DNA of 64,000 nucleotides from Candidatus Parcubacteria bacterium (GCA_021731405.1 JAKFXN010000003.1:44676-108675), one strand, 5' to 3'. Counted from the first letter of the stretch, positions 27,046 to 42,153 are shown. The notes: generated by a model not told the origin, from the letters alone. Made by a program: numbers and translations.

Positions 27046-27906
27046 ATGAAAAAGTATAAACCTACTTCTGCTGGCCGACGTGATGGATCGGTCATTGAGT
27101 ACAAGAAAAAACTAACATCAACAGCAAGTAAGCCACTTAAGTCTCTGACAGTTGGCAAGCGAAGTACTGGAGGACGAAACAGTTTTGGGCGTACAACTAA
27201 CCTCTACCGAGGTGGTGGTAACAAACAAACGTACCGTCTTGTGGACTTCAAATACGATAAGAAAAATATCCCAGCCCGAGTAGAAACAATTGAATACGAT
27301 CCAAATCGAACTGGATTTATTGCATTGCTTCTCTTTGCTGACGGAGAACGACGATACATTCTTGCTCCACAGACTCTCGCACAACATGACGAAGTGCTGG
27401 TATCTGAGACAGCTAAGATTAAACCAGGAAATCGTCTACCACTCAGCGCAATTCCAATTGGTACCTTTGTGTACAACATTGAAATCAAGCCAGGAGCAGG
27501 AGCAAAAATCGCTCGTTCTGCTGGTAACTACGCTGAAGTAGTGGCGCATGACAACGGATACACCCTTATCAAGATGCCTTCATCTGAAATTCGAAAAGTG
27601 ATTTCAACTAGTTGGGCATCAGTTGGAGCTGTATCAAACGAAGAAAATCGATTGGTTGACCTAGGTAAAGCTGGTCGAGCACGCCATCGAGGTCTTCGTC
27701 CAAAGAACCGTGGTTCTGCTCGAAACGCAGTAGACCACCCGCACGGAGGAGGAGAGGGTCGTTCACCACGTGGACACCGTCGCGCTCGTACCAAGCAAGG
27801 TCGTCCTACTGGAAAGGGGCAAAAGACTCGTTCACCAAAGAAGTACTCAAATGTCTTCATTGTAGAGCGACGAAAACCAGGCCGGTTGATGGGCGGTAAA
27901 AGGTAA
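27046..27906 (+). CDS. rplB: 50S ribosomal protein L2
   Basis: 286 aa, GRNSFGRTTNLYRGGG, HPHGGGEGR motifs. Confidence 0.95.
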   Translation: MKKYKPTSAGRRDGSVIEYKKKLTSTASKPLKSLTVGKRSTGGRNSFGRTTNLYRGGGNKQTYRLVDFKYDKKNIPARVETIEYDPNRTGFIALLLFADGERRYILAPQTLAQHDEVLVSETAKIKPGNRLPLSAIPIGTFVYNIEIKPGAGAKIARSAGNYAEVVAHDNGYTLIKMPSSEIRKVISTSWASVGAVSNEENRLVDLGKAGRARHRGLRPKNRGSARNAVDHPHGGGEGRSPRGHRRARTKQGRPTGKGQKTRSPKKYSNVFIVERRKPGRLMGGKR

Positions 27907-27945
27907 AACAAAAGACCTACGCGTTAAGCGTAGGTCTTTTGTTTT
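27905..27945. terminator. strong terminator immediately after rplB (operon break)
   Basis: aaaacaaaagacctacgc-gttaa-gcgtaggtcttttgtttt perfect hairpin overlapping stop codon. Confidence 0.85.
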
Positions 27946-27975
27946 AGTACTGTGTCTGCGCACAGTACATACCTT

Positions 27976-28036
27976 TTACCGAGTCGCAGGCATGTTTTCT
28001 TCTCTTTCCTATTACCGAAACGCAGACATGTTTTGC
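27976..28036 (+). repeat. two ~23-nt direct repeats (20/23 identical)
   Basis: ttaccgagtcgcaggcatgtttt / ttaccgaaacgcagacatgtttt, preceded by palindrome gtactgtg-tctgcg-cacagtac. Confidence 0.6.
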
Positions 28037-28114
28037 GACCCGTAGTATACAAAACAAAATATTTGTAATACAGTACGAGTAGCTAGTTTTCCTAACCAAA
28101 TTTTGGAGGTTCCC

Positions 28115-28357
28115 ATGGTATCTGAAAAAGCAGAAATTATGGCCTTGTTGAACGACCCTAAAACAGGATTGGTTCCACAGTTAGACCAGCTGTGTGAACA
28201 AATTAAGTCCATGAGAAAGGAATTGAATTATCAGAGTGACCGAATTCAAAGACTCGCAAATAGCCACCCCGCACACCAGTATGGTCAATCTGGTTTCAGC
28301 GACATGATGCGTGCTTGGCAAAGGACTACCAGTCCATGGACTTGCCAGTCGGAATGA
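28115..28357 (+). CDS. hypothetical small protein (80 aa)
   Basis: GGAGG 5 nt upstream of ATG; own terminator 28383-28409. Confidence 0.5.
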   Translation: MVSEKAEIMALLNDPKTGLVPQLDQLCEQIKSMRKELNYQSDRIQRLANSHPAHQYGQSGFSDMMRAWQRTTSPWTCQSE

Positions 28358-28412
28358 GCGTCCTAAGTGGTAAGAGTTGCTCAAAAGCCCCCGCAACGGG
28401 GGCTTTTTCATT

Positions 28413-28967
28413 TCAACAAATATTTGGCGCAATAACTTTCTTGGCTAGTGAAATGGTAGCGAGCATGAGTATTGCTAGTCCTATATATCCAACCTCGAGT
28501 CCTTGGTAGGGCAGAAATCCAAGAATAGATGAGAATCCAACGAGTCCAAGGAGTGTACTTAAAAGTGCCGTTCCACAAGCGGCACAGCCAACACCAAGAA
28601 GGGCAAAAAATAGCCCTATTCCACTATATAAGTTGGTTTTCATAAGTACTTTTGCACGGGTTGTAAAATAGGTGTATGCAAAAGCGAGGTTTATTCCGCT
28701 TAGTACTGAACCAAGAATAACCAAAATAAGACTTCCTAGCGTGAATGAACTTCCAATGTCAAAAAGGTAACTAAAAATAAGGGTAGTTTTTTCCACCCAA
28801 GAAAAGCTCAGCTTTGAAATACTAAGCAAAGTTTCGCTTTTTTCAACTAAAAGAATAGTAAGAAGAAAAAACAGGGTAGACCCCATAAGTACCATACGAC
28901 TGTCCTTTTTCTGGGCTACTACGCGAAGGCTTTTTAAGAAGGCTTTCATGTGTGTATAGTGTACCAA
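28413..28967 (-). CDS. polytopic membrane protein with intramembrane CAAC (CxxC) motif
   Basis: 4-5 TM helices; LLGVGCAACGTALLSTL inside a hydrophobic segment. Confidence 0.45.
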   Translation of the reverse strand: MVHYTHMKAFLKSLRVVAQKKDSRMVLMGSTLFFLLTILLVEKSETLLSISKLSFSWVEKTTLIFSYLFDIGSSFTLGSLILVILGSVLSGINLAFAYTYFTTRAKVLMKTNLYSGIGLFFALLGVGCAACGTALLSTLLGLVGFSSILGFLPYQGLEVGYIGLAILMLATISLAKKVIAPNIC

Positions 28968-29059
28968 CTATAAAAATAGGTACAATCAAAAACTAGTGGT
29001 CTAGTTTACTACAAAGCTGATAAAAAATATGAATATTTGTATAATAAGACGACTTTTGT

Positions 29060-29734
29060 ATGAAGAACGTACTTGTTATCGGAGGGTCATCGGGAATTGG
29101 TTATTCCTGTGTTTCGCTTTTTCATCAGAATAAGTGGAATGTCTTTGCGACGTATTTATCGCACAGCCGAGAAGGTGACAGGAGAGCTGTTTGGCAAAAG
29201 GTAGATATAACTGATAGTACACAAACTGATGTTTATCTAAACTCCTTACCAAAGCTAGATGCTGTTATTGTCTGCGCCGCAAAAAACAAAACTACAAAAC
29301 TAGAGGGAGTCTCTGCAGAAATTGAGGCAGTATTCAATACAAATCTTATTTCCCAAATACGGTTAATGGTTCCTCTGAAAGTGAAACTTAAAAAAAATTC
29401 ATCAATCATTTTTTTTGGTTCTATTACTGGACAGATTGGATCAGAACATCGAATTGCCTACAGTAGCTCTAAAGCTGCCATAACAGGACTGGTAAAGTCT
29501 TTGTCTCGTGAGCTTGCTCCGCATACTCGTGTGAATGCAATTTCTCCTGGGTATATAAAAACAAAACAATATAGCTTGAATAGTTCGATGAGTGATTCCG
29601 AGAGAACAAAAAAAATATTACTTAAGCGACTAGGAAGACCTGAGGAGGTTGCTGAGTTAGCTCTCTTTCTTTCCTCCGATACTGGGGGTTATATAAACGG
29701 ACAGATCATAAGTATTGATGGAGGTGTCATATAA
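29060..29734 (+). CDS. short-chain dehydrogenase/reductase (SDR)
   Basis: N-terminal VIGGSSGIGYS Rossmann motif, catalytic YSSSK (YxxxK). Confidence 0.85.
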   Translation: MKNVLVIGGSSGIGYSCVSLFHQNKWNVFATYLSHSREGDRRAVWQKVDITDSTQTDVYLNSLPKLDAVIVCAAKNKTTKLEGVSAEIEAVFNTNLISQIRLMVPLKVKLKKNSSIIFFGSITGQIGSEHRIAYSSSKAAITGLVKSLSRELAPHTRVNAISPGYIKTKQYSLNSSMSDSERTKKILLKRLGRPEEVAELALFLSSDTGGYINGQIISIDGGVI

Positions 29735-29736
29735 GT

Positions 29737-30405
29737 ATGCAGAAAAAAGACACTGCAATCATTGTGCTCGGAGGTGGAAAAGGGGAACGCTTTGGTTCAC
29801 TTAAACAGTTTACAAAAATTAAGGGAAAGACCCTTTTGTGTATTGTTGTTGATACACTGCTGGGATATAAGTTAAGTTCAACGCTAGTTCTGGTGGTTCC
29901 AAAAGACAATGTATCGGCTGCAGAGCAGCTGTATAAAAACAATTCTGAAGTTGTAGTGTTAGCTGGCGGGACAAGTCGCTTTGAGAGTACCAAGATAGCT
30001 TTGGATTACCTGCATGAAAAAAAATGTCAGTTCGTTTTTATTCATGATGCGGTACGACCATTTGTTCGAAAGGTAGACTTTCTAAGCCTGCACAAAGCAA
30101 TGGCAAAAGAGAATACCGAAGGCGCAGTATTATTTTTGCCAATAACTGACTCCGTTGTTTCTTCTGGGACTAAAAAAAATCAAATAGTACACCTTGATAA
30201 TACTAAATTGCGAGCTACCCAGACGCCACATCTTTATAAATACAAAACACTTGCTGCGACCTTTGCGTCAACTCGTAAGAAAGTAGAGAACGCAAAATTG
30301 ATGGAGTCTTCTGGGTACCAACTATCTTATGTACTAGGGTCACGTTTCAATATTAAAATTACGCATCAAATAGACATGCCGCTGTTTAAGTACTGGTCTC
30401 TATGA
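29737..30405 (+). CDS. IspD/TarI-like sugar-alcohol-phosphate cytidylyltransferase
   Basis: AIIVLGGGKGERFG...LKQF and IHDAVRP motifs of IspD/TarI family. Confidence 0.7.
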   Translation: MQKKDTAIIVLGGGKGERFGSLKQFTKIKGKTLLCIVVDTLLGYKLSSTLVLVVPKDNVSAAEQLYKNNSEVVVLAGGTSRFESTKIALDYLHEKKCQFVFIHDAVRPFVRKVDFLSLHKAMAKENTEGAVLFLPITDSVVSSGTKKNQIVHLDNTKLRATQTPHLYKYKTLAATFASTRKKVENAKLMESSGYQLSYVLGSRFNIKITHQIDMPLFKYWSL

Positions 30406-32465
30406 AAAAAATATCATTTATCGTTTATTATCCCTACCAGTGGTTTATTTATAAAAATGTTTACAATAAACTCGATCCAACTAAAAGAGAAATTATTGTC
30501 GATCTAGGCTTCCAGCCGCTGCTACAGAATAAAGATCTCGAACAAAGTATCGTTGCTTTACTGACTGAGAACAATGTCACATTTCGAACTTTACAGCATA
30601 TTGATTTTGTACGAGAGAAATACTTAGAAGATTTTTTCTCAAATGTTGAGGTCATTGTGTCTTGTTGGGAAGCCTCCTCGGTGGCGATTCCACAAACGGA
30701 GCATATTAAGAAAGTGGGTATGACCTATGGCATTGCCAAGGAACTAACGTTACTTCGGCCAACTCGTTCAATATACGACGTCATACTTGCTTACGGCGAG
30801 CGCGACAAGAAGCTGTTTGAGTTGATGACAAAATCCATTGCTATCGGTAACCCAAGAGCGGATGCGTTTTACCTAGGTGAAAAGCATGTCACGCCTGATA
30901 TCGCAGCTATTAATACTTTTATTGCCGGAGGCAAACCCTCAGTGTTATATGTACCAACACACGGTGACCTGAGCTCTCTCTCGACTATGAGGGAGACAAT
31001 AGCTAGTCTTGCTCCAAGGTATAACATAATAGTTAAACCCCATTACTACACACTGCGTGAAGACGCGGCTCTTGTCGGGAAGTACAGAGACATACCTGAG
31101 GTACTTGTAGTTGACGATACCGTCGATACCTTTGACGCCATAGCAGCTGTTGATGTTGTACTAAGTGACAATTCTAGTGTCATATTTGACGCTATGCAGG
31201 CAGGTAAGGATATCATCGTGTCTGACTTTTTGTCGCCACACTTCTTAGATACACTTCATAAAAATTTACGCTTTTCAAAGCGAGGACTCATTGGTGCTTC
31301 AACCTATTCAAAAAGTATTGAACAAGAAATTAAGGACAATGATTTAGTGGCTGTTATCAAAAAGCCTGAAGAGTTGGAAACTTTACTGAAAGATATTGCT
31401 GCCATCAATGCAAAATATACAACTAAGCAAGCAGAAATTGTGCGCGAAAATTTTGCTTATACGGACGGACATTCATCTGATAGAGCGGTGAAAATAATTA
31501 ATGAGGTATATGTTGAACCTCGCAATTACACTCCAGGAATTCTCCACCATGCGTATCAGGCGTTTGGAAACAGACTATACCGTACGCTTGTAAACAAAAA
31601 AGAAGAGGACGAAAGATTGAATGCTTCGGGCAAAGATCTGATTGTCTGGATTATTGCCACAACTAAGACCGAAGAAAAAGAGTTGCAGGCAACAGTATAT
31701 TCCGCCTTAGGGAATCCTACCGTCAGTCAGGTATATGTCAGCGGTTTTCCGCGGAAAATTTTCGGAGATAGTGAAAAAGTGCATGAGATGACCCATGATG
31801 AGGTATTAAAGGCTCTCTATGAGACCCTCTCTCTAGAAGCTGATCTTTGTATTACGACACCAAATACCTTACTTAAAAATCTCAGTGCTGCGACAGTATT
31901 TAAGCAAGTAAATGCCAAAGAAGCTTTGTTTTTTGCAGAAAATGGTAGCGCAAAACCATCTCAAGTGTCACAGACACTTGATGTAAGCCTCTTGCTAAAA
32001 AATGAAATATTGAACTACGAAACTGTTTGGCGGGATATATTGCTTGATGTTTCCTATGCTCAAGTTAAATCTTTAGAGAAGTGTGCCGTACTTATTGGGG
32101 TTGAAACACTGCGAGCGCAGCCGCGTATTGATTTCAAGAACATTTCTTTTGAACAGATAAGCGCCTATTGTATAGAAATATATCGTTTGCAGGCTATGCC
32201 TTTTTACGTGATGCCAAACTTCTTTCAAGTACATACAAACCCTGATCCTGAGAGGATGTTTAGTAAATTATCAAACCGTGCGATTTATCTAGAAAAAGAT
32301 GGGCTTAGTGTGTGGCAATGGGCTGATTTCAAGCCAGGTAAGTATATATGGAAATGTGTACGAGGTGATTTAAGGTATGCAAAGCTCCTTCGTCTTTTGC
32401 TGATTAAAGTATTCATTTACACAAAAGTACATTTGCACACAAAAGGTTATATTAAAAGGCTGTAG
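30402..32465 (+). CDS. TagF/TarL-like CDP-alditol phosphotransferase domain protein with ~280-aa C-terminal extension
   Basis: KPSVLYVPTHGD...IIVKPHYYT...VVLSDNSSVIFDAMQAGKDII resemble Glyphos_transf catalytic core; 4-nt overlap with upstream gene. Confidence 0.55.
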   Translation: MKKISFIVYYPYQWFIYKNVYNKLDPTKREIIVDLGFQPLLQNKDLEQSIVALLTENNVTFRTLQHIDFVREKYLEDFFSNVEVIVSCWEASSVAIPQTEHIKKVGMTYGIAKELTLLRPTRSIYDVILAYGERDKKLFELMTKSIAIGNPRADAFYLGEKHVTPDIAAINTFIAGGKPSVLYVPTHGDLSSLSTMRETIASLAPRYNIIVKPHYYTLREDAALVGKYRDIPEVLVVDDTVDTFDAIAAVDVVLSDNSSVIFDAMQAGKDIIVSDFLSPHFLDTLHKNLRFSKRGLIGASTYSKSIEQEIKDNDLVAVIKKPEELETLLKDIAAINAKYTTKQAEIVRENFAYTDGHSSDRAVKIINEVYVEPRNYTPGILHHAYQAFGNRLYRTLVNKKEEDERLNASGKDLIVWIIATTKTEEKELQATVYSALGNPTVSQVYVSGFPRKIFGDSEKVHEMTHDEVLKALYETLSLEADLCITTPNTLLKNLSAATVFKQVNAKEALFFAENGSAKPSQVSQTLDVSLLLKNEILNYETVWRDILLDVSYAQVKSLEKCAVLIGVETLRAQPRIDFKNISFEQISAYCIEIYRLQAMPFYVMPNFFQVHTNPDPERMFSKLSNRAIYLEKDGLSVWQWADFKPGKYIWKCVRGDLRYAKLLRLLLIKVFIYTKVHLHTKGYIKRL

Positions 32466-32489
32466 TTACCTTTTGGTATACTTATCTCT

Positions 32490-33359
32490 ATGTTAGAAAG
32501 TTGGTACGCAGCTCTCCTGAAATTTAAAACATATACATTACTTTGTTTTGATCTTATTAATGATCTCCGTCTGCATGTAATCTTTAACTATTTTCTCGTC
32601 GTTTCGTGGTTTTTGTATGCGTCTGGACTTTCGGCCTCTCGCTCGGTTAGTTACGCCGCGCTTATGGCTTGTTTGGCAGGGTTTAGCTATTTACTCAATC
32701 GCTATACAGACTATAGCTACGATGTGATTGTTGATAGAGGACTAGCAAAAGTATCTCCAAAAGTATATTTAGTATTGTCAGCTTGTTTTTTTGTTTGCGG
32801 ACTCGTTTTGGTCTATGTGTATCCTCAGTATCTTTTCCCAATTATATTGGGAACCTGTCTGGGGATTTTTTATAGTGTGAAGACGATTTTTAAATACCCG
32901 CTTAAGAATTATTTTGTAACAAAAAATTTATTTGCCGCTTTTTCAAAATACTTGGGCACTATGATTGGAGTGCTGCTGGTCATTCCGTTTTCCGAAGGCC
33001 TGCTTATTCGCAGTATTTCGATGTTTGCTTTTCATCTTATCTATGAAATTTTGTGGGACATACGTGACATTGAGTCTGATAGGGCTGGAAATGTTTCAAC
33101 TATTCCAAACAGATATGGCAAGACATTAGCTCTCGTTGTCTGTGTCTTAATATGGCTTATAAGCTTTCAGGCTCAATATTTTGTGGTAAACCATTCGGAA
33201 TACTTCTTTATAAAATATGCTGTTGTGTTATCGATTATATTTTCACTCATTTTTATTACAACGGTGCGCTGGTACCACGTGGCGATTTATATCCACATTG
33301 TTCTTTCACTCATTTTTATCAATAAAGAAGTTATTTTGTTTATACGAAGTCTCTTGTAA
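32490..33359 (+). CDS. UbiA-superfamily prenyl/phosphoribosyl transferase (membrane)
   Basis: LNRYTDYSYDVIVDRG = NxxxDxxxD Asp-rich motif in polytopic membrane protein. Confidence 0.6.
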   Translation: MLESWYAALLKFKTYTLLCFDLINDLRLHVIFNYFLVVSWFLYASGLSASRSVSYAALMACLAGFSYLLNRYTDYSYDVIVDRGLAKVSPKVYLVLSACFFVCGLVLVYVYPQYLFPIILGTCLGIFYSVKTIFKYPLKNYFVTKNLFAAFSKYLGTMIGVLLVIPFSEGLLIRSISMFAFHLIYEILWDIRDIESDRAGNVSTIPNRYGKTLALVVCVLIWLISFQAQYFVVNHSEYFFIKYAVVLSIIFSLIFITTVRWYHVAIYIHIVLSLIFINKEVILFIRSLL

Positions 33360-33362
33360 TCT

Positions 33363-33390
33363 TTGACATTTACAGATAGTAAGGTAGAAT
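33363..33390 (+). promoter_or_regulatory. sigma70-like promoter for GC-rich ORF
   Basis: TTGACA-16nt-TAGAAT. Confidence 0.45.
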
Positions 33391-33466
33391 ATAACCATCT
33401 TTTATAACACTTGGGGTAAGGTACCTTAGGTGGGGAATCATAAAAGAGTTCTTTTAGGAGATTTTC

Positions 33467-33949
33467 ATGAAGCGTCAATCTGCATGCAAAGGACTCTTTG
33501 CATCTCTCGCCATCTCGTTCCTGTGCCTCATCGGCACGTCCGCTTTCGCGCAGGAATCTGGTGTCAAGGCCGTTTCGACCAACAGCGATCCCATGGCACA
33601 AGTGGTGCTGACGGAAGCCGAGGTCCGCGCCCTCGTCACCGACAAGTCGGTCACTTGGGAAGCTGGCCAGTGGGGCCTCTGCCGGAATGACTTCAAGGCT
33701 GACGGTACGTTCACTTTCGAGTGCAACGGCAGCAACAACAAGTACTACGACACCGGCAAGTGGTACTTCAAGGACCACGAGTCCGAGCCTCGTCGCATGA
33801 TCTGTCGTGACTACGACAAGCAGAAAAAGGGGAGTTGTATGTCCATGGCCAGAAGTGAGGCTGGGGAGACCTTCTACTTCTTTGGGTTGTCCAAGAAAAA
33901 ACAAAATAAGGTCACTCGCGTCACCGAACTCGTGCAGGTTCCCATGTGA
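33467..33949 (+). CDS. GC-rich orphan ORF encoding secreted Cys-containing protein (160 aa)
   Basis: GC ~58%; signal peptide MKRQSACKGLFASLAISFLCLIGTSAFA|QE; AGGAG 6 nt before ATG; perfect terminator 33967-33995. Confidence 0.55.
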   Translation: MKRQSACKGLFASLAISFLCLIGTSAFAQESGVKAVSTNSDPMAQVVLTEAEVRALVTDKSVTWEAGQWGLCRNDFKADGTFTFECNGSNNKYYDTGKWYFKDHESEPRRMICRDYDKQKKGSCMSMARSEAGETFYFFGLSKKKQNKVTRVTELVQVPM

Positions 33950-33966
33950 ACAGGCTCGAGCCGAGC

Positions 33967-33995
33967 AAACCGCCAACCCAGTTGGCGGTTTTTTC
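33967..33995 (+). terminator. terminator
   Basis: aaaccgccaac-cca-gttggcggttttttc. Confidence 0.85.
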
Positions 33996-34033
33996 TTGTC
34001 CAAATTTGATGGTACACTGCGTCTAAGACAATT

Positions 34034-35272
34034 ATGAACTGGCTAGAAAAAATATTTCACCATTCAGAACTTTTTACCCAAAGAAGTATCCAAGCGCTAT
34101 ACGTCATCTTGTTTTTTGATCTTGTCTTTACGTTCAACAGCTGGACTTCACAAGGATACCTAACAGTACAAAGTGTAAAAGAAAATGACGCAATCTGCTG
34201 GCCATATTTTCAGAATTGTTTGGATCTGTATGTTTTTCAAGCCATACCGCAAGGCTATAGTTTGGGTATTCTGTACATGGTAATAGGAGGTTTCCTGTTT
34301 ACCTCGCTATATTTTTCCTACAGAGAAAAGTGGGACAAGGCACTGCTTTTTTTAGCAATACCAGCTCTGTTTAAGTTTTTGATGTTGTACGTGTTCTCCT
34401 ATCTGCCAATTGGTAATTACCATGTACTCGGATTGGTATTTGTACTCCTCCTCCTATTTGCTAAGCACAAATTATTCGCACTAAAGGTTGCAGTAACCGT
34501 TTTTTATTTTTGTGCTGCCGCCCTCAAAATTAACGCTGGCTATATTTCAGGCTCAATCTTTTCTTCCTTAGCGCTCGGCGTGCCAATTTTCCCGAATAGT
34601 TTGTTACCGTATTACGGCCTCGTCTTCATACTTATAGTTGTAGCGGTACCCTTTTTCCTCTGGTCGGCTGAATTACGAGTACGTATTATGGCTGTGAGTA
34701 TTTTGGCAGCGTTTCATGTGTATAGTATTACCCTCGTAGGGTTTCGTTTTGCGGCTCTTTGTATACCAATATTGTTTATACTTTTTATACTATCTGATTA
34801 TGAAAAATTCTCTTTCAAGAAAATACGGACAGATGTTTTTTCCTTCATTCTGATTAGTCTGATTATTTTAGGGCAAAGTCTACCTATTATAATTGCCGGT
34901 GATGAAAGAATCACCAGTGAAGGTGAAAAATACGGTTTTTATATGTATACCGCTAATCGACAGTGTATCAGAACGATAAATGTACATTACAAAGATGGCA
35001 CGAGCGCTGAAAATACCTACGAAGACAGAAAGGGGATGAGACGCTGTGACCCCTATGAAGATTGGTTCAGGATTCAGCAAGCGTGTAAGCAAGATACCGT
35101 TTCTCGAATAGAGTGGATTTTTAACGTAAGTATCAATGGGTCCTACTTCTATACTCTGGTTGATGTTCCAAATGCTTGTGTCATAACTGAATATAAGGCT
35201 TTTTCACACAATGACTGGCTAAAAACCGACATTCAAGATACGAGTCTTCCAGTATTAAAAAATAGTATTTAA
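34034..35272 (+). CDS. polytopic membrane protein (~8 TM) with C-terminal extracytoplasmic Cys-containing domain; possible membrane glycosyltransferase
   Basis: Hydropathy only; context next to UbiA/TagF genes. Confidence 0.4.
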   Translation: MNWLEKIFHHSELFTQRSIQALYVILFFDLVFTFNSWTSQGYLTVQSVKENDAICWPYFQNCLDLYVFQAIPQGYSLGILYMVIGGFLFTSLYFSYREKWDKALLFLAIPALFKFLMLYVFSYLPIGNYHVLGLVFVLLLLFAKHKLFALKVAVTVFYFCAAALKINAGYISGSIFSSLALGVPIFPNSLLPYYGLVFILIVVAVPFFLWSAELRVRIMAVSILAAFHVYSITLVGFRFAALCIPILFILFILSDYEKFSFKKIRTDVFSFILISLIILGQSLPIIIAGDERITSEGEKYGFYMYTANRQCIRTINVHYKDGTSAENTYEDRKGMRRCDPYEDWFRIQQACKQDTVSRIEWIFNVSINGSYFYTLVDVPNACVITEYKAFSHNDWLKTDIQDTSLPVLKNSI

Positions 35273-35328
35273 CTACATAAGTGCATAATTTTGCTATCCG
35301 CTAAAATCATTGTGATACCATTAAGGTA

Positions 35329-35598
35329 ATGATAAATAGTATTCCAAAGAAAATAGGGTATCTATTGCTAGCTTTAGCAGTAACTGCTTTAGGGTTTATT
35401 TTATCTCTAATTCCGGCGGGGCAAAAAGCGACCGCTGACGTAGCTATGACAAATGCCGACTATTGTGGCGTTGGTGGTCCTGGATACATGTCAGAATATT
35501 GTTATTCAATTGGATTTTATTATTACACTGACAGCGGTGGCGACGCTGCTGCTGCTTGCGGCGACGCCGCTGGAGCTGACTGTTGCTCTGCTAGTTGA
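35329..35598 (+). CDS. small secreted Cys/Gly/Tyr-rich peptide precursor (89 aa, 6 Cys in C-terminal 45 aa)
   Basis: N-terminal hydrophobic leader then DYCGVGGPGYMSEYCYSIGFYYYTDSGGDAAAACGDAAGADCCSAS. Confidence 0.5.
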   Translation: MINSIPKKIGYLLLALAVTALGFILSLIPAGQKATADVAMTNADYCGVGGPGYMSEYCYSIGFYYYTDSGGDAAAACGDAAGADCCSAS

Positions 35599-35617
35599 TT
35601 GTTCTAAAACTTAATAT

Positions 35618-36667
35618 ATGAAAAGCCCTGTTTTTATTGCCATTGTCCTCGTTCTAATAGCAGTTGTTGTCTTTGCGGCGAGATTGTTTCTTCTTGATCG
35701 AGAAATCACAATGCAAGCTGTGCCTCCTGCTCAAACCGAAGAAGGGAACAACGATGGTTTTGTAGATATTACTAAACAGGCAGTTGAGACAAACTCTGAT
35801 TTACAGGAAGGTATTCGACTTATAGAAAATGGTAGATTTGCCGACGCTCGAGTTTATTTACAAAAAGCGGTAGAAACAGAAACTGACCCAAATACCAAAT
35901 CAGTGGCTGACCTGACATTCGCAAGTACTTACTTTAGGGATAATCAGCCTGAGTTAGCCGCTGAAAACTTATTGCGTGTTGCCAACGAGCCATCGTATCC
36001 TAGCTCTACTCGTGCTTTTGCACTGACGACAATTGTGCAGCAGTATAATGCCACAAAAGACATCTCACTTCTCAAAGTCTTTGGAGACACTGAAGAATTT
36101 AACACCAGCTATTTACTACAGGGAGCACACAGACAAATCGTTACCCTCTTTCCAATGGGTCTGTCAGTCGCATACCTAGCAAGAATCGATATGGATAGAT
36201 TTGCGGATAAAGCTGAAATCACGTATCAAGAGGCAATTGAGAAGATTGACGCAGACATCATTTTTCAAAACAAGGGCCTAGAAAGTAATTATCTTGTACC
36301 GAATATAATGATTGCAAAAGCAAATCTGATGGCTAAAGCAGAAGGCCTTGGGTTTGAAGATCGGCGTGAAGTAATTAAAGCTTATAAAGACGCAATTACT
36401 ACCGCTAAAGAAAAGCTTCAGGCAACTACTGCTCAGTTTGCCATGCTCCAGTACATGAACTACTTGGGTAAAAATGTTGAAGAAAATACGGTACTTATCG
36501 ATGAAGCCCTCGCAATCTTTGAAGCAGAGAAACTAACTGAAATGGTCGTCAATCACTTGGGACGAGAAGAGGTTGTCTACGAGTGGCCAGGGATTATTGC
36601 TATTGCACGAGTAAATGAAGCATACGTTACATTCTTCTCCCAATATGTTCCAGTTCCCCAACAGTAA
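35618..36667 (+). CDS. membrane-anchored helical-repeat (TPR-like) protein
   Basis: N-terminal TM helix, alpha-helical repeats; no catalytic motif. Confidence 0.4.
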   Translation: MKSPVFIAIVLVLIAVVVFAARLFLLDREITMQAVPPAQTEEGNNDGFVDITKQAVETNSDLQEGIRLIENGRFADARVYLQKAVETETDPNTKSVADLTFASTYFRDNQPELAAENLLRVANEPSYPSSTRAFALTTIVQQYNATKDISLLKVFGDTEEFNTSYLLQGAHRQIVTLFPMGLSVAYLARIDMDRFADKAEITYQEAIEKIDADIIFQNKGLESNYLVPNIMIAKANLMAKAEGLGFEDRREVIKAYKDAITTAKEKLQATTAQFAMLQYMNYLGKNVEENTVLIDEALAIFEAEKLTEMVVNHLGREEVVYEWPGIIAIARVNEAYVTFFSQYVPVPQQ

Positions 36668-37184
36668 AGTGTACGCGCTTATTGCCCTAACTCTCGTTTT
36701 AGGGATATTAGTAGCGCTCAGTTTTCGTATTGTTCGCTATACAGACCTCTTGCCCCCACAGATAGTCGACATAAGCCCCGTTGAGGCGTATGAAAACATT
36801 CTTGGTAATCCCGAAAAATACATTCTCATAGATGTTCGCTCTGGTTCTGAGTACCAAAACGCCCACGCTACAGGTTCGGTAAACTTACCGATACATTATC
36901 TCTATGATGATATGCACGGTTTGCCTAATGAACTACGTGTTCCTGTACCAAAAAATACCGATCAGGAGATATACCTTTTATGTACTGGAGGTAGATTGGC
37001 GGGTGTAGCCTATGGATATCTTGAACACCATGGCTATCGAAACATTAAACGAATCGAAGGAGGTATTGCAAACTGGGCAAAAAGTGGGCTCCCGATTATA
37101 ACCAAGTCCCTCTTTTCTGGGACAGAAGTAGATTTTAATACTGCGACAGAGGGTGAGCTCGATAGACCGTATGTTCAAGAATAA
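36645..37184 (+). CDS. membrane-anchored rhodanese-domain sulfurtransferase
   Basis: ILIDVRSGSEYQNAH...LLCTGGRLAG (active-site Cys loop). Confidence 0.75.
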   Translation: MFQFPNSKVYALIALTLVLGILVALSFRIVRYTDLLPPQIVDISPVEAYENILGNPEKYILIDVRSGSEYQNAHATGSVNLPIHYLYDDMHGLPNELRVPVPKNTDQEIYLLCTGGRLAGVAYGYLEHHGYRNIKRIEGGIANWAKSGLPIITKSLFSGTEVDFNTATEGELDRPYVQE

Positions 37185-37884
37185 GGGCTTAATTCTTTTT
37201 CTCCTCGTCGTATTTTTTATAGGATCGGGTTTATTTCTTTATACAAATGAGGAAAGAGTACCAGAACAAGAAATAAACCTAAGTGAGACACTGACTATCC
37301 GTGAGAACGAACATTATCTTAGCTTTGCAGAGGATTCAGAATACACTGTTGTTGAATACCTAGACTTTGACTGCGTTTTTTGCAGGCGGTTACATCTGGA
37401 ATTAGACAAAGGAGGAGTCGATTATTCTAAAATTACCTATATCATCAGAAGTTTTCCAAGCACAGGCGTAGTCTTGTATTCAAAAAAAGCCTTAATTGCT
37501 GAATGTATATATGACCAAAGTGGAGACGCAGGGTACTTAGCCTTTATTGATTTGTACTTTAAGACCTGGGGTAATAAAAATGACCTTACTTGGGCAACTA
37601 AGATTGCGGAAAATCTTGTGACTGACAAGGACGCTTTATACAATTGTTTAGAAAACAACCAAGCAATAAAAGATACTATCAGTAGTAATTTTACGCTTGA
37701 TAGTATTGCTGGCGTTACGCAGACTCCTTCGTTTTATGTTTATAAAAACAATGTACTTGAACAAAAGTTTGTTGGACTTGGAGCAAAGACATACCGAAAC
37801 TTAATGAGGTATTACTCTCGAAATAGTAGGGGGTATTTAAATACCTGGACGACGCTCCCGCTTTTTGAAAATGTACGCCGATAA
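37171..37884 (+). CDS. DsbA-like thioredoxin-fold thiol:disulfide oxidoreductase (membrane anchored)
   Basis: N-terminal TM helix; LDFDCVFCRRLH CxxC active site. Confidence 0.7.
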   Translation: MFKNKGLILFLLVVFFIGSGLFLYTNEERVPEQEINLSETLTIRENEHYLSFAEDSEYTVVEYLDFDCVFCRRLHLELDKGGVDYSKITYIIRSFPSTGVVLYSKKALIAECIYDQSGDAGYLAFIDLYFKTWGNKNDLTWATKIAENLVTDKDALYNCLENNQAIKDTISSNFTLDSIAGVTQTPSFYVYKNNVLEQKFVGLGAKTYRNLMRYYSRNSRGYLNTWTTLPLFENVRR

Positions 37885-38157
37885 TTTTTTCTGCTCTCCA
37901 AGCGCATGAAATATATGGGGCGCAATATCTGGGTTGCAGTGCACTGCCACTTTTTGAACGCCTTGCCCTGATATCAAAAGTTCCATCCCAGCGTTAGTAA
38001 AAACAGCAGTGACCCTTCTCTTGCCGCTCTTGCTTTTTCCTTGCGTAATAATACCTGGTGAAACAAGAGTTACTCCAGGTATTTTTTCAAGGAGAACAAC
38101 TACTTCCTCGGCGGTCTCGGTCAGAGTTGAGTGGGTACCACCACGAATGTTCTTCAT
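37837..38157 (-). CDS. hypothetical protein (106 aa)
   Basis: ORF only. Confidence 0.35.
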   Translation of the reverse strand: MKNIRGGTHSTLTETAEEVVVLLEKIPGVTLVSPGIITQGKSKSGKRRVTAVFTNAGMELLISGQGVQKVAVHCNPDIAPHIFHALGEQKKLSAYIFKKRERRPGI

Positions 38158-38249
38158 TACTTAAGTGTAGCAAAAATGGACTGTCTTTGCTTATGTATTC
38201 CAGTTTAGCCCCTTAACCTTTTTCTTAACAAATGACATACTAGAGGGTA

Positions 38250-38846
38250 ATGGAAGACGATGTGCTATATGTAAATAGATGTAAAGCTGGTGACACAGAA
38301 GCTTTTGGCGTATTGTACGATCGGTACATAGATAAAATCTATCGATTTGTTTTTTATAAAACGTTTGTTAAAGAAGTGGCGGAAGATATCACAAGTGATG
38401 TATTTCATAAGGCACTGCAAAAGATTAATTCTTACGAAGCTGACAGGGGCGTATTTAGCGCTTGGATATATCGTATCGCCCGCAATAATGTGATTGATTA
38501 TTACCGCAGTCAGAAAGGAGACGTACCGCTTGAGGATGTATTTGACGTTGGGTTTGATGAACGTACTCCCGAATCGCTCGACGCCATTGCGGCCCTTGAT
38601 AAAGTGAATGTGTATCTTGAGACTTTGAGTAGTAAGCAGCGGGAGATCATCACCCTTCGGGTTTGGGAAGAGCTGCCTTACCTCGAAATTGCCGAGATTG
38701 TGGGCGGTACGGAAGATAGTGTAAAGATGGCTTTTTCTCGCAGTATCCGTGAATTGCGTGAAAAGTGTGGACCCATTTCACCCCTACTTCTCTTTGTGGC
38801 GGTTGGGTTTTCAGAGCAGGCGTTACTTTTTCATGATTTTACGTAA
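38250..38846 (+). CDS. ECF (extracytoplasmic function) RNA polymerase sigma factor
   Basis: sigma-70 region 2 (YDRYIDKIYRFVFYK...DITSDVF) and region 4 (LSSKQREIITLRVWEELPYLEIAEIVG). Confidence 0.85.
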   Translation: MEDDVLYVNRCKAGDTEAFGVLYDRYIDKIYRFVFYKTFVKEVAEDITSDVFHKALQKINSYEADRGVFSAWIYRIARNNVIDYYRSQKGDVPLEDVFDVGFDERTPESLDAIAALDKVNVYLETLSSKQREIITLRVWEELPYLEIAEIVGGTEDSVKMAFSRSIRELREKCGPISPLLLFVAVGFSEQALLFHDFT

Positions 38847-38856
38847 TACATAGTAT

Positions 38857-39648
38857 ATGAAGGATTCGCTTGAATTAATTATTAAAGACATCTATACCCT
38901 TGATCCGTCGCTCGTAGAGCAAGACGGTGAGGTACGGGCTTTGGTGAGTGCTCTTTCGGAGCAGAAACCAGTAGTCGTGATAGATGCTGCTTTTGTGCAA
39001 TCTTTGCGCGCTGACTTAGTGAAACCTGCTCGGGTGATGCCTGTTGTTGCCCCAACACCGTCAGCTTGGTGGATGGTATATGGAGCACCAGTTGGGGTTC
39101 TGGCACTCTTGCTGATTATGCTTATACCGAAGACGGAGCCTATGCGCAATGAAGTTCCAACCATTGCCCCTTCGCCAGTAAGAGAAGCAGATATGTATCT
39201 TGAGTCTTCGGATGGGGCGCAAGAGACTAAGCGTTCAGCTCCCGCCAGTGGCGCTGCCGAGTCAATGATGATGGAAGCAGATACTATGATGATGTCAGCT
39301 CCGGTGTCTGGAGACACCTTCCAAATCAGTACCCAAGCGCCTGGAGACACGGTCGTAGTAGACTTTGCCTCCCTTGAACAAGCGGGGTACTTAGTTATTC
39401 AAGCTTATACAGAAGAAGGTCCAGGAGAAATCCTTGGTACTAGTCCGCTCTTGGCTGCCGGTATGATAGAGCAGGTTCAAATTGTCTTGAATTTAACCAC
39501 AGAGCCTGACCAAACCTTCTTTGCGGTCCTATATCGAGACGATGGCGATGGGTTGTTCTCACTTGAAGCAGACATGATGGTCTATGACCAAAGTGGTACG
39601 GTACCGTTCTCACAAATGTTCTCAACTACACCGGCTCCACTCCCATAA
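38857..39648 (+). CDS. putative anti-sigma factor (single-pass membrane protein)
   Basis: Immediately downstream of ECF sigma, cytoplasmic N-term + one TM (WWMVYGAPVGVLALLLIMLI) + extracytoplasmic domain. Confidence 0.55.
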   Translation: MKDSLELIIKDIYTLDPSLVEQDGEVRALVSALSEQKPVVVIDAAFVQSLRADLVKPARVMPVVAPTPSAWWMVYGAPVGVLALLLIMLIPKTEPMRNEVPTIAPSPVREADMYLESSDGAQETKRSAPASGAAESMMMEADTMMMSAPVSGDTFQISTQAPGDTVVVDFASLEQAGYLVIQAYTEEGPGEILGTSPLLAAGMIEQVQIVLNLTTEPDQTFFAVLYRDDGDGLFSLEADMMVYDQSGTVPFSQMFSTTPAPLP

Positions 39649-39691
39649 TAGTGTTACCCTTAAGCTACAACTGCGTAGTACAAAAGAGGAA

Positions 39692-39729
39692 AGAAATTGC
39701 TTATGTCCTTGGGACATAAGCAATTTTCT
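39692..39729 (+). terminator. terminator
   Basis: aaattgcttatgtcc-ttgg-ggacataagcaatttt. Confidence 0.8.
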
Positions 39730-39771
39730 AAATGAGCATATTTTCTTAATAAAAATAATAGTAATAATCAT

Positions 39772-40785
39772 ATGGAATTTATCAAAAAGATTGATTGGAG
39801 TAAGCCAGGAATACAGCTCGCGTTTGTGGGTCTGTTTGGCGTATTCGCTTTTATAGTATTGTCGGGTACCAGTATTCAAAACCCAATGCCTTCATTCTCT
39901 AAGGACAGTGAAGAAGCGATGTATTATGGCGATGGCTATGCGGTTTCGTCAGATATGGGCATGGGATATGGACAAGAACTTTCTCTTCGTAATGTAGAAG
40001 GAAGCATCATGCCACCAATGCCAGATTTTGCCCCAGGCAATGACGCTGAAGCGTATGAGGTAAAGCAGTACTCAGCTACTATCGAAACTAGAAACCTAGA
40101 AGAGGATTGTTCTACTGTACGTTCACTCATGGAGCGCGAAGATGTTATCTTTCAAAATAAAAATGAATACGAACAAGGATGTTCATATAGTTTTAAGGTA
40201 GAGAAGGAGAGCGTTGAGGAAGTGCTAGCTATCTTAGAAGCGCTTGATCCAAAAGATCTTAGTGAAAACTCCTACACCATTAAGCGTGAAGTGGCTGATT
40301 ACACGGGAGAGATTGAAATTCTCGAGAAGAAGCTCGCTACGCTAGACCAGACTCTGACCCAATCGCTCGCCAGTTATGACACCCTAAGTGCACAAGCAAC
40401 TGCTCGAGGCGACGTAGCAACGCTCGCTCAGATTACTGAAAGTAAGATAACCCTTATTGAGCGCCTAACTATCACTCGTATTGATACTGTCGGACAACTC
40501 GATAGACTAGCTCGAGCGAAAGCTGAAGCGCTTGACCAGCTCGTGTACACAAACTTCTACGTAAATATTTACGAAAACACCTTCGTAAACGGTGAAGAGA
40601 TTAAGACTTCGTGGATAGAAGCGGTTAAAGAATTGGTGCGAGAGATCAACACCTTCGCACAAGAGGTAAGTCTTGGGTTTGTAGCACTCTTGTTTATGGT
40701 AGTGAAATATTCACTTTACGGTATCGTACTACTCTTTGTAGCTCGCTTTGCCTACTCATTCGCTCGAAAAGTCTGGACTTCATAG
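39772..40785 (+). CDS. DUF4349-like protein (N-terminal TM, coiled coil, C-terminal TM)
   Basis: Architecture and position next to ECF/anti-sigma pair. Confidence 0.45.
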   Translation: MEFIKKIDWSKPGIQLAFVGLFGVFAFIVLSGTSIQNPMPSFSKDSEEAMYYGDGYAVSSDMGMGYGQELSLRNVEGSIMPPMPDFAPGNDAEAYEVKQYSATIETRNLEEDCSTVRSLMEREDVIFQNKNEYEQGCSYSFKVEKESVEEVLAILEALDPKDLSENSYTIKREVADYTGEIEILEKKLATLDQTLTQSLASYDTLSAQATARGDVATLAQITESKITLIERLTITRIDTVGQLDRLARAKAEALDQLVYTNFYVNIYENTFVNGEEIKTSWIEAVKELVREINTFAQEVSLGFVALLFMVVKYSLYGIVLLFVARFAYSFARKVWTS

Positions 40786-40846
40786 TCAAATAGACCCAAT
40801 CGGTAAGATATTGCAGGATGCTCCGTCAACGTAAATAACAAACACT

Positions 40847-41059
40847 ATGTACGAAAAAGCTAAAACATTTACACTTTCAAAACCACTTCTCAAAAAGATA
40901 GTTGGTGGAGTGTTGGTGCTGATTGGCTTTGTGGCTCTTATCACGCCATTGACACCAGGAGCTATACTCTTCCTCTTCGTGGGCTTTGAGTTTCTTGGCC
41001 TCAGGTTTATGTTCCTCGACCGCCTTATTGGACGAAAACCAGCCTCTGCCTTAGAATAA
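40847..41059 (+). CDS. small membrane protein (70 aa, two TM)
   Basis: ORF + terminator 41088-41120. Confidence 0.45.
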   Translation: MYEKAKTFTLSKPLLKKIVGGVLVLIGFVALITPLTPGAILFLFVGFEFLGLRFMFLDRLIGRKPASALE

Positions 41060-41121
41060 TTGCAAAGGAGAACCCTAGGTAAAACGTAAAAGCCGCAAAT
41101 CCTATGGATTTGCGGCTTTTA

Positions 41122-41219
41122 CTATGCAAAATAAGACTCGATTGAGCATAATTATTGACTTTACTCATAAATTATGCTATTATACTAGCAGTACAGTCTC
41201 ATCCCGAGACTAAAGGAGT
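41122..41219 (+). repeat. copy A of 97-nt promoter-operator-RBS module
   Basis: 94/97 identical to 41508-41605; contains TTGACT-17-TATTAT, inverted repeat gcataattat/ataaattatgc around -35, hairpin agtctc-atccc-gagact, AAAGGAG SD. Confidence 0.9.
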
Positions 41220-41224
41220 TCGTC

Positions 41225-41440
41225 ATGTTGCACCCCGAAGCAAAAAACTTGCCCGCTACCAAGGAAGAAACACTCACAATGATCGAAATTGTGAAGTCGA
41301 CACTCGTTTTCGACAAGGAGGCTCTTGCAGATGCCGTCGATGAAGGTGACTACTACAAAATTCTGGAAGAGCAGCGCGAAGTCGCTGATTCCGAAAAGGA
41401 CCTCGCCGCGCTCGAAGCACATCTCTTGACCTTCCAGTGA
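41225..41440 (+). CDS. cassette A cargo: acidic 71-aa helical protein
   Basis: ATG 6 nt after SD of the repeat module; terminator 41447-41490. Confidence 0.55.
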   Translation: MLHPEAKNLPATKEETLTMIEIVKSTLVFDKEALADAVDEGDYYKILEEQREVADSEKDLAALEAHLLTFQ

Positions 41441-41507
41441 AAGATTTACCGCCTTTAAGACAAAACCTGTCTTCGGGCGGTTTTGTTTTGTCTAAAAGCA
41501 GCTCCTG

Positions 41508-41605
41508 CTATGCAAAATAAGACTCGATTGAGCATAATTATTGACTTTACCCATAAATTATGCTATTATATTAGCAGTACAGTCTCATTCCGAGACTAAA
41601 GGAGT
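41508..41605 (+). repeat. copy B of 97-nt promoter-operator-RBS module
   Basis: see copy A. Confidence 0.9.
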
Positions 41606-41609
41606 TCCC

Positions 41610-41900
41610 ATGAAATTTGTCCTGAACCTTGTTGCTGCCACCCTTGCTGCAATTGGCGCCATCACGCTGATTAATCTCGGTGTTGAAGGCTTCTCGAGAG
41701 AGAAAGCTATCGTCAAAACTGAAAAGTTCGAACCGTCCCGATATGTTCACAGAAATGGGCTTGATAAAGCACAGCTTCTCTGTGAAAAATATGGTGGCAT
41801 TCTCTCCATTGGAGGCATGTATATCCAAGATGGCGTGAGGTATGAGCTCATGTGTATGTATGGGAAGGAGATGACGTTTGAAATCTTGCTTTCAAAATGA
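41610..41900 (+). CDS. cassette B cargo: 96-aa secreted/anchored Cys-containing protein
   Basis: ATG 41610 right after module SD (ORF track offers upstream in-frame start 41541 inside the module); signal-like MKFVLNLVAATLAAIGAITL; terminator 41902-41940. Confidence 0.55.
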   Translation: MKFVLNLVAATLAAIGAITLINLGVEGFSREKAIVKTEKFEPSRYVHRNGLDKAQLLCEKYGGILSIGGMYIQDGVRYELMCMYGKEMTFEILLSK

Positions 41901-42153
41901 CCGCCTTCAGACAAGACTGTCTAAGGCGGTTTTGTTTTGTCTAAAAGACCCCAAAAGGTTGACTTTTCCTCACCATTTGGTACTGTAGGCGGGTTCCAAC
42001 CTCACGCGGGATTGAAGTGTCACCCGCACAAAAGTAGCAGAAGCACAGGTTATTAAGGGTTGGGAATCTCTGTTAAGGACGGCCGTTACCTTTCTTTACA
42101 AGAGATTCTCACAGAGGCGCCACAAGCGCTTATTTATTCGTTGTTAGAAAAAC

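Follow-up and report, generated by a model that had tools for sequence, protein, structure and literature searches.

In the closest described systems, TarI/TarJ/TarL and TagD/TagF of Staphylococcus and Bacillus, an IspD-family cytidylyltransferase and a reductase stand beside a PF04464 phosphotransferase of the glycosyltransferase-B (GT-B) fold. In the cryo-EM study of TarL, two histidines are described as essential and invariant: H300 serves as base and is stacked on W299, and H433 contacts the donor alpha-phosphate (passages of PMC10901376). In Haemophilus influenzae Bcs1/Acs1, an IspD-like cytidylyltransferase with a reductase, ribulose 5-phosphate is reduced with NADPH and activated with cytidine triphosphate (CTP) to cytidine diphosphate (CDP)-ribitol (passages of PMC10299916), and pairs of a cytidylyltransferase and a short-chain dehydrogenase/reductase (SDR) make CDP-6-D-glucitol and CDP-mannitol via CDP-fructose (passages of PMC10918830). 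The Gram-negative capsule polymerases Cps3D, Cps7D and Bcs3 (Litschko 2018 mBio; Cifuente 2023 Nat Chem Biol) are fusions of a TagF-like and a GT-fold domain with C-terminal amphipathic helices. Here, a related set of genes was analysed in a 64,000-nt stretch of DNA from Candidatus Parcubacteria bacterium (GCA_021731405.1 JAKFXN010000003.1:44676-108675; the whole stretch is called the window, and its coordinates are used throughout), where an SDR, an IspD-like protein, a TagF-like protein and a UbiA-superfamily membrane protein are encoded in tandem at 29060-33359.

It is fairly probable that this operon builds an alditol-phosphate-containing envelope glycoconjugate by a four-gene CDP-alditol pathway in a Patescibacteria/CPR-type bacterium (CPR, candidate phyla radiation). 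The assignment of the SDR, IspD-like and TagF-like proteins to a module for CDP-alditol synthesis and alditol-phosphate transfer is supported; a polymer, rather than a single addition, is conjecture. Three features of the module are unusual: the base histidine is lost, an apparently dead GT-A domain is fused C-terminally, and a UbiA partner recurs. No published description of this cluster was found in the literature searched.

The glycopolymer unit is the four-gene operon listed in Table 1. All six open reading frames (ORFs) named in an earlier sequence-only reading of the region were found in place, and its SDR, IspD-like, TagF-like and UbiA assignments were upheld by Pfam and NCBIfam matches. 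The genes had been described as overlapping, which is true of the IspD-like and TagF-like genes (4 nt shared, ATGA), whereas gaps of 2 nt and 24 nt separate SDR from IspD and TagF from UbiA, respectively. Placing all genes in one cluster was not sustained: the gene of a 412-aa membrane protein sits behind a terminator and travels without the TagF trio elsewhere, so the unit was limited to four genes. Both the 412-aa gene and that of a 160-aa protein were ruled out as members by comparative context and by the promoter and terminator signals. The total count of promoter-like sites in the region was no higher than the shuffled expectation, and Rfam gave no match anywhere in the window.

In the TagF-like protein, PF04464 (Glyphos_transf) was matched with 49 bits (gathering cut-off 22.1) and the donor-side motifs are intact (G149NPR, P185THGD, K212PH214YY and S255DNSSVIFD263), with H214, D256 and S258 kept in at least 160 of 165 relatives and H214 in 162. 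No transmembrane (TM) segment was found in the protein. The family is small, with 25 clusters at 90% identity, all of which contain PF04464 (25/25); a representative library of 1.84 billion proteins yielded 555 TagF-like representatives at E ≤ 1e-3, of which 87 reach E ≤ 1e-30. A direct sequence link to solved TagF/TarL structures failed and was bridged through a paralogue in the related locus L004 and a relative from E. coli. The 451-aa L004 paralogue matches Cps3D (8qoy) and TarL (8va1) directly, and in its alignment 'PTW', 'KxH' and 'TDxSSxxxD' correspond to P185THGD, K212PH214 and S255DNSSVIFD263. Through the same paralogue H214 was aligned with TarL 'KMHPF' and Cps3D 'RGHHL'; it corresponds to TarL H433/TagF H584, the second catalytic histidine, which is present.

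The C-terminal extension of this protein, previously noted as unexplained and about 280 aa long, is real (~290-310 aa, kept in 13 homologues), and a predicted fold can now be given to it. An AlphaFold (AF2) model of residues 376-687, built with 15 homologues, reached a pLDDT of 83 and a pTM of 0.81. Comparison with the PDB by Foldseek gave 80 matches at E ≤ 0.001, led by GT-A glycosyltransferases (among them WrtF, CgT, TarP, RmlT, TarS and hyaluronan synthase); the 50 matches listed have E 2.5e-6 to 4e-4 and probability 0.99-1.00, with a TM-score of only 0.35-0.47. TarP, TarS and RmlT are glycosyltransferases of ribitol-phosphate wall teichoic acid. No Pfam match was obtained in any of the 15 C-terminal regions of the extension subgroup; PF00535 is recognisable at the same position in more distant homologues. 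In the window protein the DxD column (alignment A1) reads A-E-N within 'FFAEN', and by eye 'VYVSG' stands where GT2 'VVDDG' is expected, the acidic pair after beta-2 being changed to S-G; almost no invariant polar residues are left in the core. On the model, the extension is a degenerate GT-A (GT2/TarP/TarS-like) fold that lacks the DxD and DD acidic motifs. These are the acidic motifs for nucleotide-sugar and metal; the domain more probably binds the acceptor or acts as a scaffold than works as a glycosyltransferase. Only three full-length representatives in the 1.84-billion-protein library share the extension. At its end the model has helices H270-278 and H283-311 (model numbering), and the helical hydrophobic moment of the 687-aa protein peaks in its last ~45 residues, where the helices are basic and amphipathic. 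These helices are a putative peripheral membrane anchor, by analogy with those that anchor TarL (passages of PMC10901376) and Bcs3 (passages of PMC10299916) at the membrane.

The SDR carries G8GSSGIG14, S121 and Y134xxxK138, and its NCBIfam matches are FabG/YmfI-like, every one under the equivalog cut-off; by analogy it is a putative ketose-phosphate (or CDP-ketose) reductase making the alditol. The IspD-like protein was matched to PF01128 with 121 bits and contains G12GGKGERFG20, K23, H103DAVRP108 and N205IKIT209 (K207), of which K23 and K207 are, we assume, the counterparts of E. coli IspD K27 and K213. Its best PDB relatives are IspDs, with 4cvh, 4jis and 2vsh also among the matches. A decision between IspD and TarI by the closest annotated relatives on plasmids gave no discrimination, all being ~26-30% identical, and annotated relatives are in general equidistant in that range. 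The protein is a putative alditol-phosphate cytidylyltransferase by its sequence, and a CDP-alditol role is favoured by its constant place directly 5' of the TagF-like gene, by the 4-nt overlap and by the lack of methylerythritol phosphate (MEP) pathway genes, since a scan of 30 window ORFs and the gene tables from related loci showed none of dxs, dxr, ispE, ispF, ispG and ispH. Ribitol is the most economical alditol, the choice itself being conjecture. The SDR in place of the medium-chain (MDR) TarJ had been held non-canonical; it is not novel, since Bcs1 already pairs a reductase with a cytidylyltransferase. Bcs1 is one fused polypeptide, its cytidylyltransferase domain presumably N-terminal, whereas the window has two genes, SDR then cytidylyltransferase, with a putative substrate. 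The reductase part of Bcs1 is reportedly an SDR, going by the title of Pereira & Brown 2004, which is cited in the literature alongside Zolli 2001.

For the UbiA-family protein, PF01040 was matched with 57.5 bits (cut-off 34.2), and the sequence has at least six strongly hydrophobic segments. Both motifs, N70xxxD74xxxD78(xxxD82) and D190xxD193xxxD197, are present, and N70xxxD74xxxD78 and D193xxxD197 are invariant among 20 homologues; with both Asp-rich motifs intact and invariant, Mg2+-dependent chemistry with a diphosphate leaving group would be expected. Twenty-six proteins make up this tight family, at a mean column identity of 59%. Its closest NCBIfam models are archaeal-type prenyltransferase and digeranylgeranylglyceryl phosphate (DGGGP) synthase, all far under their cut-offs; the best, PRK12884 prenyltransferase, scored 47 bits (cut-off 269). 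No assignment to a solved subfamily was obtained, the best PDB profile match, chlorophyll synthase, being non-significant (E 0.3). From gene linkage, we infer that UbiA supplies or primes a polyprenyl-based acceptor; a role like that in decaprenyl-phospho-arabinose (DPA) synthesis is conjecture.

Twelve TagF loci were compared (the window, L001-L004, L006-L009, L011, L015 and L016). The IspD-like gene is directly 5' of the TagF-like gene in 12/12, with protein identities of 28-63% for IspD and 40-88% for TagF. The SDR adjoins them in nine, is one gene off in two (a methyltransferase lies between) and is replaced in one, L008 (8287-12229), by a peptidase-U32-family protein. UbiA lies within the module in 7/12 TagF loci, and the trio was present in seven of the eight UbiA contexts examined; in the exception, L010, UbiA is paired with a PAP2_C protein, a neighbour also seen in L011. 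A tblastn search of the island proteins against related loci likewise found SDR, IspD and TagF widespread, UbiA in a subset, and the 412-aa protein only in L003, the 88%-identical relative. The cluster of the sequence-only reading is thus conserved as an SDR/IspD/TagF block in 11 of 12 loci and with UbiA in seven, the 412-aa protein being no part of it. Organism-named relatives come from Patescibacteria metagenome-assembled genomes (MAGs; Nomurabacteria, Saccharibacteria and 'Patescibacteria group') and the others from metagenome or MAG contigs; all 12 loci are apparently patescibacterial. In most genomes the module is near secDF and a YcaO/nitroreductase/PQQ-propeller set, and in the window and L003 a ~14-kb block that carries it stands between two genes of the S10 ribosomal-protein operon, rplB and rpsS; the module's presence at different chromosomal sites means that the four genes relocate together, which argues for functional coupling.

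Larger glycopolymer clusters surround the module in some genomes. One has a second TagF and two GT2 genes, one a second IspD+SDR+TagF set, and another an LCP ligase nearby. In L007 (12166-17647) the second SDR/IspD/TagF set includes a 525-aa SDR-containing protein, and in L001 (5633-7498) an LtaS/sulfatase-type membrane protein (PF00884) is encoded directly 3' of the TagF-like gene. Next to the trio in L002, L004, L007, L009, L015 and L016, genes were seen for YcaO, a nitroreductase, a fusion of a phosphoribosyltransferase (PRTase) with a PQQ beta-propeller, and a Hint-domain protein. The same flanks encode one or two ~385-410-aa single-TM proteins with 'DAYFxTHRYxDNGGNIYELYD ... VPEFKxWLxxNGWxExDF', which have no Pfam family in the gene tables. 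A ~200-230-aa multi-TM protein adjoins UbiA in L009, L011, L015 and L016. The window contains none of the YcaO, nitroreductase, PRTase-PQQ, Hint and 'DAYFxTHRYxDNGGN' proteins, nor the ~220-aa multi-TM protein or PAP2_C.

In the proposed pathway, the SDR would use NAD(P)H to reduce a ketose phosphate, in the simplest case ribulose 5-phosphate to ribitol 5-phosphate, and the IspD-family enzyme would use CTP to form a CDP-alditol, most likely CDP-ribitol, by analogy with Bcs1; the reverse order, as in CDP-glucitol synthesis, is the alternative. The cytoplasmic TagF-like GT-B domain, held at the membrane by the amphipathic helices, would take the CDP-alditol as donor and place alditol phosphate on a hydroxyl group of an acceptor linked to the membrane, with release of cytidine monophosphate, H214 acting as TarL H433 and E90 taking the place of the usual base histidine; the domain itself is identified, and its chemistry is presumed from the sequence. 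The GT-A-like domain would bind or scaffold the acceptor. UbiA would make or prime a polyprenyl-based lipid acceptor with a diphosphate-activated donor (polyprenyl diphosphate or phosphoribosyl diphosphate, PRPP), a step suggested by linkage. Export of the product would follow. The teichoic-acid-like reading proposed earlier accordingly keeps its CDP-alditol and phosphotransfer module, and loses both the novelty of the SDR and a part for the 412-aa protein as a GT-C enzyme. A further proposal, speculative and in our estimate unlikely, is a Patescibacteria-specific lipid-anchored alditol-phosphate route that would bypass the classical TagO/TagA/TagB linkage unit by means of an anchor made by an as yet uncharacterised UbiA subfamily, ribitol-phosphate addition by a TagF with E90 as base and acceptor recognition by a dead GT-A domain; in it, UbiA might act like Rv3806c on polyprenyl phosphate, with PAP2 partners in some genomes, or might prenylate a polyol phosphate.

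Several observations weigh against the CDP-alditol pathway. The IspD-like protein scored 135.4 bits against the ispD equivalog model TIGR00453 (cut-off 181.3), more than against the model of D-ribitol-5-phosphate cytidylyltransferase, NF001183 (69 bits, cut-off 166); as both curated cut-offs are missed, the substrate is not assignable from sequence, and none of the results singles out one alditol. Neither phmmer nor the family profile retrieved a TagF or TarL chain from the PDB with the TagF-like domain, so the domain is very divergent. In place of the Trp-His dyad (TarL W299-H300/TagF H444) the alignment has W89-E90. This assignment rests on three points: the E. coli Flag-2 relative aligns Y-H at the same place, five relatives have W-H there, and E90 is spaced 59 residues from GNPR, compared with ~58 in TarL. 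Glu is invariant among the extension-bearing subgroup, and in relatives of 30-40% identity the position varies (H, F, M, Q, W, S, K, N, L). With the base histidine replaced and its position variable, the mechanism may differ, or some members may be inactive. The catalytic residues on which the sequence-only reading had made the TagF assignment depend are thus half lost, the first histidine being replaced by Glu and the second conserved; the donor-binding half is canonical and the acceptor-activating residue non-canonical, with E90 a plausible carboxylate base on the alignment. The N-terminal accessory domain of polymerising TagF enzymes was not found in the protein, nor were TagO/TagA/TagB-type primers, a TagGH transporter or an LCP ligase among the window ORFs scanned. 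UbiA is missing from 5/12 TagF loci (in L004, L006, L007 and L008 with ~10-kb flanks on both sides), and with the window UbiA there was no NCBIfam match to decaprenyl-phosphate phosphoribosyltransferase at E ≤ 0.1, and Rv3806c was not among the PDB profile matches.

Set beside TarL and TagF, the TagF-like protein shares the donor motifs PTxxD, KxH and SDxSSxxFD, the second catalytic histidine and amphipathic helices in place of TM segments. It differs in having Glu for TarL H300 and a C-terminal degenerate GT-A domain instead of an Ig-like or other N-terminal domain, and the module differs from the Tar and Tag systems in its reductase (SDR, not MDR TarJ), in the lack of TagO/A/B/GH or LCP genes nearby in the window and in the inclusion of UbiA. 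Unlike the window GT-A domain, which is without DxD and DD, that of the capsule polymerases is active and yields a glycosyl-alditol-phosphate repeat; the window also has no kps-type ABC export locus, and the host is a monoderm-like CPR bacterium. The E. coli Flag-2 protein UJL12869.1 (CP054241.1) is 25% identical in its TagF domain over 366 residues (E 4e-24), combines GT2 and TagF-like domains and has a cytidylyltransferase gene nearby; in contrast to the window protein, it has its GT2 domain, which Pfam recognises, at the N-terminus, retains the aromatic-His dyad as Y-H, and lies in a flagellar gene cluster with no UbiA or SDR partner. At that locus (L014, 7591-10029), the 812-aa GT2+TagF-like fusion, annotated 'glycosyltransferase', was seen beside a lysine-N-methylase and a small cytidylyltransferase, a context that suggests CDP-polyol-dependent modification of a flagellin glycan.

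Mycobacterial Rv3806c is a UbiA-type enzyme, Rv3807c a PAP2 phosphatase and DprE2 an SDR. The window module resembles the mycobacterial DPA pathway in combining a UbiA-superfamily enzyme with an SDR in a cell-envelope glycan context, and the UbiA homologues that adjoin a PAP2-superfamily gene in L010 and L011 mirror the Rv3806c-Rv3807c pair. It differs in that no DprE1-like flavin adenine dinucleotide (FAD) oxidase was found in any locus and UbiA matched no phosphoribosyltransferase model (E ≤ 0.1). Since the SDR gene ends 2 nt 5' of the cytidylyltransferase gene, a nucleotide-alditol role fits it better than a DPA role.

Alternatively, the TagF-like enzyme might add one alditol-phosphate (or glycerol-phosphate) cap to a protein- or lipid-linked glycan, for instance on pilins or S-layer proteins, as in flagellin-glycan modification islands and in mammalian FKTN/FKRP; with ISPD, FKTN and FKRP, the addition of a single ribitol phosphate has a precedent (PMC4873967). 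A single-addition or glycoprotein role is favoured by the lack of the N-terminal accessory domain typical of polymerases, by the absence of TagGH, another ABC exporter or an LCP ligase from the ORFs scanned, and by the nearest annotated relative in the searched collections, the 812-aa fusion of the Flag-2 locus. It is nevertheless judged unlikely, as a lipid-linked acceptor is suggested by the recurrent UbiA membrane transferase and by the PAP2-type genes of L010 and L011, additional TagF and GT2 genes of the sort usual in polymer clusters occur at some loci, and no conserved candidate target protein is found beside the module. A novel polar lipid as the end product, in place of a wall polymer, was also considered: UbiA, being DGGGP-synthase-like, would make a prenyl-ether membrane lipid, to which the CDP-alditol/TagF pair would add an alditol-phosphate head group. 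The archaeal-type and DGGGP-synthase models that score best for UbiA fit this, as do the PAP2_C neighbour (sphingomyelin-synthase- or PDCT-like) of its homologue in L010 and L011 and, in L011, a fatty-acid-hydroxylase-family protein and the conserved ~200-230-aa multi-TM protein. A head-group role was nonetheless held to be improbable, given that every UbiA score is far under cut-off, that the PAP2_C and fatty-acid-hydroxylase genes are absent from the window, that no polyprenyl diphosphate or geranylgeranyl diphosphate synthase was seen nearby, and that the known substrates of TagF-like enzymes are the ends of glycolipids or polymers and do not include bare lipids.

The genes could, lastly, belong to isoprenoid synthesis, with the IspD-like protein a true MEP enzyme, UbiA an aromatic or lipid prenyltransferase, the SDR a tailoring enzyme and the TagF-like protein unrelated. 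That the ispD equivalog-domain model gives the best score (135 bits), that the best PDB relatives are IspDs, and that UbiA is matched best by prenyltransferase models speak for it. The sequence-only reading had itself named a bona fide MEP IspD as the finding that would undo it; the score lies under the curated cut-off of 181 bits, and no MEP gene accompanies the protein in the scanned window ORFs or the related loci. CDP-ribitol is the product of human ISPD and bacterial TarI, although both resemble IspD in sequence, and it is the TagF-like gene, not UbiA (absent from five loci), that the IspD-like gene invariably precedes. We regard an isoprenoid cluster as very improbable.

Table 1. Features of the region, in window coordinates
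Feature	Position	Strand	Evidence or remark
Promoter-like site CTGATA-17-TATAAT	29017..29045	+	15 nt 5' of SDR start codon; consensus match only, weak
Classical SDR, 224 aa	29060..29734	+	PF13561 E 5.5e-39
IspD/TarI-family cytidylyltransferase, 222 aa	29737..30405	+	PF01128 E 7e-35
TagF-like protein, 687 aa	30402..32465	+	PF04464 E 5.9e-13, residues 137-270 only
TagF-like GT-B phosphotransferase domain, residues 1-375 of 687-aa protein	30402..31526	+	PF04464, motifs
Predicted degenerate GT-A (GT2-like) domain, residues ~413-632 of 687-aa protein	31638..32297	+	AF2 model, Foldseek
C-terminal basic amphipathic helices, residues ~645-687 of 687-aa protein, KLLRLLLIKVFIYTKVHLHTKGYIKRL	32334..32465	+	Model, hydrophobic moment
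Divergent UbiA-superfamily integral membrane transferase, 289 aa	32490..33359	+	PF01040 E 1.7e-15
Promoter-like site TTGACA-16-TAGAAT, near-consensus	33363..33390		Directly 3' of UbiA
Terminator-like hairpin, 11-bp stem, strong	33967..33991		Before 412-aa gene
412-aa membrane protein	34034..35272	+	Multi-helix, C-terminal beta-rich domain; model pLDDT 75.6

The 412-aa membrane protein had been put forward as a possible GT-C enzyme, an idea rejected on structure prediction and Foldseek. Chains of human GGCX account for all 15 PDB matches of its model at E ≤ 0.001 (TMq 0.51-0.62; best E 2.5e-8), one further GGCX chain follows at E 0.019 and the next target at E 0.23; no GT-C structure was found among the 50 matches listed. 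On this model, the protein has the fold of the vitamin-K-dependent gamma-glutamyl carboxylase. Its gene belongs to a module separate from the glycopolymer unit. A profile link of its family to HTTM or GGCX was negative, so that the likeness to GGCX is in fold only: none of 10 members matched Pfam (PF05090 HTTM), the family profile had no match in the PDB, and hhalign against a neighbouring bona fide HTTM protein gave a probability of 0.2. Invariant in the 10-member family are CWPYFQxC, K146, K165, H228, R238 and RCDPY. In the window its companions are a small secreted peptide rich in Cys (35329-35598), a protein of 349 aa, a rhodanese and a thioredoxin_4 protein resembling DsbA. L012, which has no TagF trio, has the order DCC1-like / 410 aa / small peptide / 339 aa / rhodanese / thioredoxin_4, equal to that of window 34034-37884 and also kept in L003, and in L013 a homologue is two genes from a canonical HTTM protein. 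The stretch 34034-37884 (+) may be a peptide-modifying or thiol-redox module. The correction removes a false GT-C lead and reveals a membrane protein of predicted gamma-carboxylase fold in a thiol-redox/peptide context.

Between UbiA and this module, 33363-33991 is a self-contained GC-rich cassette, probably acquired horizontally. The GC content is 0.54 in 33400-33799 vs 0.34-0.40 in neighbouring windows, and the 160-aa signal-peptide protein encoded between the promoter-like and terminator-like signals has a weak DUF995 match (E 6.7e-4). High GC seems to have produced, as a side effect, a 238-aa ORF on the other strand (33287-34003); in L003 the gene caller chose the minus-strand ORF instead.

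Further features of the window were recorded. Between rplB (27046-27906) and rpsS (42154-42495), 27907-42153 is a ~14.2-kb block of lower GC (~0.39-0.41 over 28-38 kb vs ~0.45 in the flanks) that splits the S10 ribosomal-protein operon, as it does in L003, a 756-kb contig of GCA_040384005.1. The block also encodes an extracytoplasmic function (ECF)-type sigma factor (38250-38846), followed by a 263-aa protein (38857-39648) with an L003 homologue that has DUF7282. A 110-nt direct repeat at 41112-41221 and 41498-41607 (94% identity) carries in each copy promoter-like elements (TTGACT...TATTAT), a hairpin (AGTCTC...GAGACT) and, shortly before a small ORF begins (at 41225 and ~41611), the Shine-Dalgarno sequence AAAGGAG; it looks like a duplicated promoter and 5' untranslated region, and has no Rfam match. 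Divergent from the operon, 28413-28967 (-) encodes a 184-aa multi-TM protein with a membrane-embedded GCAACG (CxxC), which has no Pfam or NCBIfam match and is kept only in L003. At 15209-17272 (-), a 687-aa protein combines Pyr_redox_2 and a dimerisation domain with a C-terminal VTT/DedA-type membrane domain.

Patescibacteria live as ultrasmall episymbionts and attach to host bacteria through their surface, and to our knowledge almost nothing has been learned experimentally about their envelope glycopolymers. A compact, mobile four-gene module for CDP-alditol synthesis and alditol-phosphate transfer would offer a tractable entry point to this envelope, and its proteins suit in-vitro reconstitution. 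If the proposed pathway is true, the TagF-like family would gain a branch without the 'invariant' catalytic histidine, and a UbiA-superfamily enzyme would be tied to teichoic-acid-type chemistry for the first time within the literature searched.

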